Source: Infirmifilum sp. (GTDB lineage: Archaea > Thermoproteota > Thermoprotei > Thermofilales > Thermofilaceae). Taken from it: a DNA stretch of 11,621 nt. Position numbers and translations under genes: made by a program. Below the pieces are notes generated by a model. The model was given only the letters and a program-made list of their open reading frames with translations. It was not told where the DNA came from and did not search any database. Location of the stretch: the NCBI GenBank assembly GCA_041287245.1, contig JBEULP010000038.1, forward strand, positions 1 to 11,621, read 5' to 3'. This document shows positions 1,788 through 9,348 of the stretch, one piece after another (positions within the stretch are counted from its first letter, which is position 1; the number at the start of each line of letters is the position of its first letter).

Positions 1788-2380
1788 GTGGTAAAAATAC
1801 CGGAGCCAACATATGAGATTCAAAATGTTGTTGCTTCAGTAACACTTAACCAACGCTTAGACTTGGAGCGTATAGCAGAGCGAATACCTCACGCCGAGTA
1901 TAGCCCGGAACATCCCAGGTCTCCGGACCTGGGATCCGAGAGTTCCCCGGATTGGTACTACGGCTTAACCGTCCAAAGACGGCTACACTGATATTCTCCA
2001 GCGGAAAAATGGTCTGCACAGGAGCAAAATCCGAATCAGAGGTCAAGAAGGCAGTGGGTAGTATAATTAAACTGTTAAAACAGCACGGCATCGACATAAA
2101 AAATGAACCTATAGTTGAGATCCAGAATATAGTTGCTAGTGCTAATCTAAAAACTGCCGTGGATTTGGAAAGAGCCGCTTTTCAACTTGAAAATGCCATG
2201 TACGAGCCGGAGCAGTTTCCAGGACTTATCTATAGAATGAATGACCCGAAGGTCGTTCTTTTAATATTCAGCAGTGGAAAAGTGGTCTGCACGGGGGCTA
2301 AGAAGGAGGAGGAGGTAAAGGAGGCTGTAAACAAGATATACAATATACTTAAGGAACGGGGCGTTCTAATAGAAGAATGA
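1788..2380 (+). CDS. tbp: TATA-box binding protein, split by an intron: join(1788..1911,1941..2380), 187 aa after splicing
   Basis: ORF 1788..1991 encodes [10 protein letters not shown]...AEYSPE and ORF 1952..2380 continues FPGLVLR...[15 protein letters not shown] plus a complete second repeat. Removing 29 nt gives 564 nt in one frame, with AEYSPEQFPGLVLR matching the second repeat [14 protein letters not shown]. Confidence 0.96.
1912..1940 (+). other. Predicted 29-nt BHB (tRNA-endonuclease type) intron in tbp mRNA
   Basis: Central helix CGGA(1906-1909)/TCCG(1935-1938); 3-nt bulges ACA(1910-1912) and AGA(1939-1941); 9-bp intron stem TCCCAGGTC/GACCTGGGA capped by C(UCCG)G. Cuts AC|A and AG|A rebuild codon C|AG (Gln). 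Confidence 0.92.
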
Positions 2381-8594: not shown

Positions 8595-8719
8595 TGGGCC
8601 GGCCGGGATTTGAACCCGGGACCTATACCGACAGCCGCGCGCTACGCGGTGTGTTTTCGGTTATCAGCCGAACGCTTTTGGCGCAGCTGAGAGGCTCTAC
8701 CTGGCTGAGCCACCGGCCC
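8595..8719 (-). tRNA. tRNA-Ile(GAT) with two introns (D arm about 22/23, 20 nt, 8677-8696; 43/44, 31 nt, 8625-8655)
   Basis: Acceptor GGGCCGG/CCGGCCC+A, D stem GCTC/GAGC, anticodon arm TTCGG-CTGATAA-CCGAA, T arm CCGGG-TTCAAAT-CCCGG; 125-51=74 nt mature; CCA not encoded. D-arm intron boundary can slide by up to 3 nt. Confidence 0.95.
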
Positions 8720-8756: not shown

Positions 8757-8993
8757 CGCAGGCGAGAATAAGCATTCTAGGAAACATCTCTCGGGCAGGC
8801 CAGACGGAAAAACCTGTAGCCCAGTTAAAACATTAAACTCCATATGGCTCACCAGTGTAAAATGAGCAGAACATCTATCAAGAACCCCTTAGAACGGAAA
8901 TCAAGCCATCCCCCGCGCATAGCCCAGAACCCATCCAAGAGAATTTAACCTCGACATTTCTTGCAATAAACTCAGTAAGCCCTACAGAAAAAG

Positions 8994-9086
8994 TGGGCCG
9001 GGAGGGACTTGAACCCCCGACCTTCGGGTCTGGAGCATCGACCTCTCTATAGAGACCGCCGCTCTACCTAGCTGAGCTACCGGCCC
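8994..9086 (-). tRNA. tRNA-Trp(CCA) with a 19-nt intron at 30/31 (9037-9055)
   Basis: Acceptor GGGCCGG/CCGGCCC+A, anticodon loop CTCCAGA, T arm GGGGG-TTCAAGT-CCCTC. Full BHB: central helix CGGC/GTCG, bulges GG|T and AT|G, intron stem CTCT/AGAG, exon stem GAG/CTC. 93-19=74 nt. Confidence 0.95.
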
Positions 9087-9135: not shown

Positions 9136-9237
9136 TTAGAGATCCAGGTAAATAGTATGAGATCTAGCTCTACCTAGCTTGTAAAGAAGTCGTAGCTCTA
9201 AAGATCTATTAAGGATGAAATAAAGACTCGAAGATAG

Positions 9238-9348
9238 CGCCCCGGCCGGGATTTGAACCCGGGTTCTCCGCGCCACTTCAGGGCTCTGCGGCTCGACAGG
9301 CCGCCTTGAGGGGCTTGCATCTATCCTCGACCACTAGACGACCGGGGC
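9238..9348 (-). tRNA. tRNA-Asp(GTC) with two introns (25/26, 17 nt, 9306-9322; 45/46, about 20 nt, 9266-9285)
   Basis: Acceptor GCCCCGG/CCGGGGC+G73, anticodon arm GCGGC-CTGTCGA-GCCGC, T arm CCGGG-TTCAAAT-CCCGG. BHB1: GAGG/CCTC with bulges AT|A and AA|G. BHB2: CCGC/GCGG with bulges AG|A and AG|A and intron stem GCC/GGC. Confidence 0.95.

Follow-up and report, generated by a model that had tools for sequence, protein, structure and literature searches.

The single tbp gene found in this Infirmifilum genome, which encodes the TATA-binding protein (TBP), is interrupted by a 29-nt insert. The insert is real and shifts the reading frame inside the EQFPG motif of the first TBP repeat, exactly where the initial annotation had located it. 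Our comparison indicates that it is very probably an mRNA intron of the kind processed by the tRNA splicing enzymes EndA and RtcB, whose excision would restore a TBP of 187 amino acids. A TBP intron dependent on the tRNA machinery had been proposed in the initial annotation; comparison among relatives supports this reading, with the splicing step itself deduced from sequence. The EndA/RtcB reading is supported because the insert site is shared, the inserts occur in all three phases, the stems covary, the boundaries lie where the bulge-helix-bulge (BHB) rule places them, tbp is single, exon 1 is under selection, and the enzyme genes are present.

The tbp locus and its predicted fold

The window, meaning the whole 11,621-nt stretch that was analyzed, carries tbp on its forward strand (Table 1). 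Exon 1 matches the TBP profile NF001592 at positions 5 to 40. As had been claimed, the unspliced frame (1788-1991) encodes 67 amino acids, and a downstream open reading frame with a TTG start (1952-2380) encodes 142. Excision of 1912-1940 gives PEQFPG in repeat 1, the same motif as in repeat 2. That the BHB rule restores E-Q-F as in repeat 2 was borne out by a deletion test comprising 75 deletions (26, 29, or 32 nt, with starts at 1900-1924), among which PEQFPG was obtained only from the 29-nt deletions starting at 1912 and 1913, two deletions that yield an identical product. No other tbp was found in the assembly by tblastn or with Pfam PF00352; a second intact copy, which the initial annotation had named as evidence that would count against an intron, thus did not turn up. 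Since the assembly consists of 119 contigs, has 5% contamination, and contains two pyrG copies, the single-copy status of tbp rests partly on relatives. The two CTP synthase (pyrG) genes lie at C74:385-1218 and C83:2945-3772, which fits the 5% contamination.

Table 1. Features of tbp and of the predicted intron (window coordinates)
Feature	Position	Strand	Description	Basis
tbp gene	1788-2380	+	Between signal peptidase I gene and N-acetyltransferase gene	
Exon 1	1788..1911	+	Codons 1-41 and first base (C) of Gln42; predicted GTG start at 1788	ORF list
Exon-exon helix (weak)	1902..1944	+	1902-1904/1942-1944, C1905 unpaired	Relaxed BHB/BHL geometry
Central helix, 5' strand	1906..1909	+	CGGA, 4 bp, in exon 1 (Pro40-Glu41 codons)	Pairs in 30/30 sequences
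5' bulge	1910..1912	+	ACA, predicted cut after 1911	Sequence
Predicted intron	1912..1940	+	29 nt, between bases 1 and 2 of the Gln42 codon	Sequence comparison, RNA model R1
Intron hairpin	1913..1934	+	9-bp Watson-Crick stem 1913-1921/1926-1934 with TCCG loop	Double changes
Central helix, 3' strand	1935..1938	+	TCCG, intron side	Covariation count
3' bulge	1939..1941	+	AGA, predicted cut after 1940	Variation at middle base
Exon 2	1941..2380	+	Remainder of Gln42 to stop	ORF list, deletion test, profile matches

Every element of the fold described in the initial annotation, namely the 4-bp helix, the bulges ACA and AGA, the 9-bp stem, and the UCCG loop, is present at its place. The loop occurs here as described, but its conservation does not extend outside the family. 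With regard to the exon-side helix, the proposed AGC/GUU pairing of 1902-1904 with 1942-1944 stands and is found in 30/30 sequences, whereas the alternative C1905-G1942 pair does not, C1905 being better read as unpaired. This helix consists of 3 bp and one unpaired base in all 30 sequences, with one C-G to U-A change among them, and its pairing is largely dictated by the protein sequence. The fold of 1902-1944 (-24.0 kcal/mol, z = -3.75) was equalled by 1 of 200 shuffles. In energy per base, the motif ranks 8th among the 50,363 motifs with BHB geometry in the genome, and 1st among the 68 that are able to rejoin two coding-like frames. A strict motif definition, biased in that it was drawn up after the tbp motif had been seen, identified one site in the genome and none in each of three shuffles. 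No second convincing mRNA intron was found in this genome by the BHB scan (stems of at least 5 bp, non-relaxed motifs), which listed 67 other putative candidates; its coding-score filter was a loosened one, as tbp itself was borderline and had initially been dropped. No Rfam match was present at the 29-nt insert site, and a self-splicing group I/II intron or an rRNA intron of the homing-endonuclease type was rejected on the basis of this length and the lack of an Rfam match.

The genome harbors two EndA-family (PF01974) genes. One scores above the cut-off of TIGR00324, the EndA equivalog; the second protein falls under it and displays weak beta-subunit matches. An RtcB gene was also found, and ARAGORN predicted introns in most of the 45 tRNA predictions of the genome. 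In the window itself, tRNA genes with an intron-containing appearance lie at 8595-8719, 8993-9086, and 9237-9348 (-), with anticodon calls that differ between ARAGORN and Rfam. We propose that the tbp pre-mRNA folds into the BHB motif, that EndA would cut after C1911 and G1940, and that RtcB would ligate the exons, so that full-length TBP would be translated from the spliced message. Unspliced mRNA would give rise to the 67-residue peptide as a dead end.

Related genomes and alternatives to splicing

Among 50 tbp loci examined, 29 carry an insert at C|AG of the Gln codon and 21 do not, the latter including five rows in which PEQF is intact and the apparent difference is an alignment artefact. 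The RNA model R1 was positive in 30 of the 120 genomes of the class, most of its matches being so by construction, as it was built from 26 of these inserts. Carriers comprise 25 of the 41 genomes of the order, together with all 5 from two families beyond this order, and include the single-contig, 99%-complete genomes G005, G006, and G007. The window intron scores 61.6 bits with R1, a model built from these same sequences. When 151 genomes drawn across the phylum were searched with R1, only G005, an already known carrier, was recovered. In a scan for the junction in metagenomes, 120 of about 310 stretches comprised at least 16 intron-bearing contigs, 95 insert-free loci, and 9 chance matches. 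A pattern scan over all prokaryotes gave 46 matches, the archaeal ones being tbp genes and those with bacterial labels not tbp where parsed; titled records with the motif were labelled Thermofilum, Thermofilaceae, Thermoproteales, Thermoprotei, Thermoproteota, or archaeon. No tRNA intron resembling the tbp intron was detected, R1 matching only tbp sites in the 120 genomes under strict filters, and no phage match was found.

The initial annotation had suggested looking for inserts with covarying BHB pairs at the same site in the tbp genes of relatives, and these were found in 30 genomes. In the 30 aligned sequences, the 4-bp central helix and the first 7 stem pairs were paired in 330 of 330 cells (central helix alone, 120 of 120), compared with 5 to 54% in slid-register controls, and double changes occurred in 54 cells at 8 of the 11 pairs, a count reached in none of 500 shuffles; as the carriers are kin and not independent, the shuffle counts are overstated and all pairing counts are inflated. 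The intron stem displays double changes at all 7 counted pairs, none of which is broken, and RNAalifold recovers the identical structure unaided. In the central helix, the 5' strand shows a G-C to A-U double change in 3 of the 30 sequences. In these three genomes, CGGA/UCCG has become CAGA/UCUG, and the exon change (Pro CCG to CCA) is synonymous and compensated within the intron. Codon usage around the junction differs as well: Pro-Glu is encoded by CCG GAA in 25 of 29 intron-bearing genes versus 1 of 21 intron-free genes, and the Ser codon before the junction is AGY in all 20 intron-bearing genes but TCN in all 8 intron-free genes that have the Ser. The TCN codons (L011, L012, L018-L021, L026, and L029) represent both intron-free lineages with this Ser, and a change from AGY takes two steps.

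When each bulge is cut behind its second base, PEQFPG results in 28 of 29 genes and PGQFPG in the remaining one. At the 5' boundary, the exon C never changes, but the intron base after it does (G in L016, T in L199); likewise, the middle base of the 3' bulge, which is the last intron base, can be G, A, or T between two invariant A residues. Variable intron ends together with invariant exon flanks fix the boundaries where the BHB rule places them. One of 16 metagenome copies (L199:468-507), whose protein resembles that of the intron-free G001, contains a central helix with an A-G mismatch. This mismatch and the non-canonical exon-side helix in the present genome count against the splicing interpretation.

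Insert lengths are 26 nt (n = 1), 27 nt (2), 28 nt (6), 29 nt (13), 30 nt (3), and 31 nt (5), and thus span all three phases. This bears on the alternative that the insert stays in the mRNA and is skipped by the ribosome, through a programmed frameshift or a bypass over the hairpin of the kind known from T4 gene 60, where such a hairpin, codon, and stop are features of bypassing. A stable hairpin does follow GAA. In 23 of 29 genes the would-be landing codon encodes Glu (GAG or GAA), and an in-frame stop lies within 18 of the 29 inserts. However, the lengths would demand corrections of 0, +1, and -1 at one site, the landing codons are mixed (GAG in 22 genes, TAG in 3, AAG in 3, and GAA in 1), and a hop from Glu to Glu would remove the Gln, which is invariant. 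Pairing of exon 1 with the 3' end of the intron is conserved and would have no role in bypassing, yet it forms an EndA substrate. We consider ribosomal skipping very improbable. The stops are present in all 5 frame-preserving (3n) inserts; they are weak evidence and may be inherited rather than selected, because 13 of the 24 other inserts have one as well.

Equally hard to sustain is the idea that no splicing takes place and that the downstream reading frame functions alone, or with the N-terminal peptide as a split TBP. The 142-residue product from the TTG start does span one whole TBP repeat. Its start is not conserved, however, as 7 of 29 genes lack ATG, GTG, or TTG until 22 codons after Phe43, and FPGLV is invariant in the 29 genes in spite of such late starts. 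The Phe directly after the junction is, we assume, one of the DNA-intercalating phenylalanines of TBP. The fragment falls below the curated cut-offs of all 10 NCBIfam TBP models that it matched, and the intron-free orthologue of G001 can be aligned gap-free with an archaeal TBP of known structure (PDB 1mp9, residues 9-180). Both exons are under selection. For exon 1 it is purifying, as this exon contains stops in 0 of 29 genes and displays a pN of 0.17 against a pS of 0.87 over 406 pairs (0.05 versus 0.88 within the genus).

Removal by another route, either by a different nuclease or by excision at the DNA level in part of the population, likewise has very little probability in our view. EndA cleavage is itself a prediction and the exon-side helix is relaxed, which leaves some room for such a route; each boundary, however, directly follows the second base of a 3-nt bulge, and the two bulges are 4 bp apart. 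Concerning excision from DNA, no near-identical insert-free copy of an intron-bearing gene occurs among the 95 insert-free metagenome loci listed, the best match being 86% over 63 nt. Finally, a pseudogene or assembly error might be suspected from the fragmented, partly contaminated assembly and from four genomes of the class whose tbp is split by single-base deletions, but is extremely improbable given the same site in 30 genomes, the covariation, the purifying selection on exon 1, and the lack of a second tbp. The four split genes (L105-L108, in G086, G087, G091, and G092 of family f14) were rejected as intron cases, as their single-base deletions lie at varying places; these are probably sequencing errors.

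Gain, loss, and further inserts

When the intron label is mapped on the TBP tree (50 rows), 5 changes are needed, 4 of which are forced by well-supported branches; this tree is based on a single gene and midpoint rooted, and gains and losses are not separable from it alone. The intron-free genes of G001 and G033 each have a carrier gene as sister; 7 rows without the intron also form a clade, which lies within the carriers. As the intron sequence is homologous at a single site, one gain and at least three losses are the simplest account, with the gain probably old and preceding the split of the order from the two other families of the class. Horizontal spread may also have contributed. No recombination patch was seen around the lost intron of G001.

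In G047 (L138), two homologous introns interrupt the same codon of the two repeats, at 1197-1238 (31 nt, repeat 1) and at 1501-1538 (27 nt, repeat 2). The repeat-2 intron contains an in-frame TAG, and excision of both introns gives a full TBP. The codons flanking this site remain those of repeat 2, and an outer helix of canonical form (4 bp) is possible there. The second intron was probably copied from repeat 1 into the equivalent codon, a case known from a single genome as assembly sequence. This double intron would be a direct trace of the entry of an intron into a new site of a protein gene, and bears on the origin of archaeal introns.

A wider survey of the phylum covered 301 genomes, 289 with a TBP, and 150 of 470 match rows, with five odd cases followed up. 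In family f42 of another class, 3 of 4 genomes (G229, G385, and G306; L273, L274, and L275, near 1904-1931) carry a 28-nt insert with BHB geometry in TBP repeat 2, one codon further on and inside the Phe codon, while G386 is intact. This insert is flanked by a long exon-exon helix, and its excision restores YEPEQFPGL. It has no R1 match and therefore looks like an independent gain; the case is less secure than the first, as its three copies hardly differ from each other and the central helix of one of them contains a mismatch. Other survey hits were rejected, since the sequences of G167 and G196 run into contig edges, and both copies in G318 are intact.

In the genome of the window, cbf5 (a 341-aa frame), pyrG, and rnhB are uninterrupted. 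Outside its order, frame-breaking inserts were observed at the catalytic-Asp site of cbf5 in L279 (G047), L280 (G041), and L281 (G229). G047 and G041 have both the tbp intron and an insert at the published cbf5 intron site. In G229, a hairpin insert that contains an in-frame stop follows directly on the DEAGR motif of the RNase HII gene rnhB (L282:130-190), so that tbp, cbf5, and rnhB all appear to be interrupted in this genome.

At the scale of lineages the tbp intron is dispensable, and this speaks against any essential role in regulation. At least three nested lineages lack it, so that it is probably a tolerated passenger, and we regard a regulatory role as unlikely. Within the genus the intron hardly varies although synonymous sites are saturated, and paired G+C stems may be sufficient to explain this. 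Probably, the intron is old, is spliced constitutively, and has been lost a few times, its retention reflecting that TBP survives intact only if the deletion is precise. A broader scheme seems to us unlikely. In it, short BHB introns would be mobile in archaeal protein genes, both inside one gene and from gene to gene, and would repeatedly land in the Glu-Gln-Phe stirrup of TBP (three occupied sites and two unrelated intron families), while tbp splicing would act in these lineages as an XBP1/HAC1-like switch linking the supply of TBP to tRNA and rRNA processing. One genus holds close relatives with and without the intron, several of them as single contigs, so that splicing, regulation, and cost are testable.

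Relation to known archaeal introns and unconventional splicing

In the literature that we found, splicing within archaeal coding regions has so far rested on one gene, cbf5. A full-text search, mostly outside subscription journals and of articles without their supplements, gave no report of a tbp intron and no archaeal coding-region intron beyond cbf5. The accessible parts of PMC12397907, PMC3082918, and bioRxiv 10.64898/2026.10.13.758758 contain no further archaeal mRNA introns. A conserved intron in a single TBP gene would make basal transcription dependent on the tRNA splicing machinery, and from such organisms gene callers recover TBP in truncated form.

In Haloferax volcanii, HVO_1309 has a BHB intron in its 5' UTR (Schwarz et al. 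2020, PMC7714728), and the text available from this paper gives cbf5 as the sole other archaeal mRNA case. The HVO_1309 mRNA is an EndA substrate, as proposed for that of tbp, but its intron is untranslated, whereas the tbp intron breaks the frame of a single-copy gene. Relaxed BHL motifs are cleaved by hetero-tetrameric EndA, according to the accessible part of Hirata 2011 (PMC3241643). Transposition of tRNA introns in the Thermoproteales has been described (Fujishima 2010, as cited in the part of bioRxiv 10.64898/2026.10.13.758758 available to us). The tbp intron resembles the non-canonical archaeal tRNA introns in its motif, size, and predicted enzymes, and in that related introns recur at new sites, but differs from them in that its host is an mRNA.

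XBP1/HAC1 splicing involves the nuclease IRE1 and a 26-nt intron. As in that system, a short frame-breaking intron is located in the mRNA of a transcription factor and would be processed by a protein endonuclease and a tRNA ligase, both predicted in the case of tbp. A role of RtcB in XBP1-type unconventional splicing is reported in the accessible text of PMC8718801. The nuclease and the motif of XBP1/HAC1 are different, and that system is a proven stress switch; the likeness of tbp to it is one of mechanism and not of membership.

The cbf5 pre-mRNA intron occurs in Desulfurococcales and Sulfolobales and undergoes BHB-dependent splicing by EndA (Yokobori et al. 2009, PMC2738675). As far as the accessible text of that paper goes, no archaeal pre-mRNA splicing had been confirmed outside cbf5 in 2009, predicted cases are cited from a rudivirus and from a Sulfolobus book chapter, and Thermofilum cbf5 is listed as intron free. 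The two introns are alike in being short (16-44 nt in cbf5, 26-31 nt in tbp), in having a BHB or relaxed motif, in lying between bases 1 and 2 of a conserved codon, and in their variable interior, lineage-specific losses, and mis-annotation by pipelines. They differ in lineage and in host, TBP being a core transcription initiation factor, and in that splicing has been demonstrated experimentally for cbf5 and is predicted for tbp. For the second copy in a paralogous repeat, as seen in G047, no cbf5 counterpart was found in the accessible part of the cbf5 literature. Judged by comparison among relatives, the predicted tbp intron shares with the cbf5 type the central helix between two bulges, the restored protein, the covarying structure, and the enzyme genes of the host, and is strongly supported as an intron of this kind.
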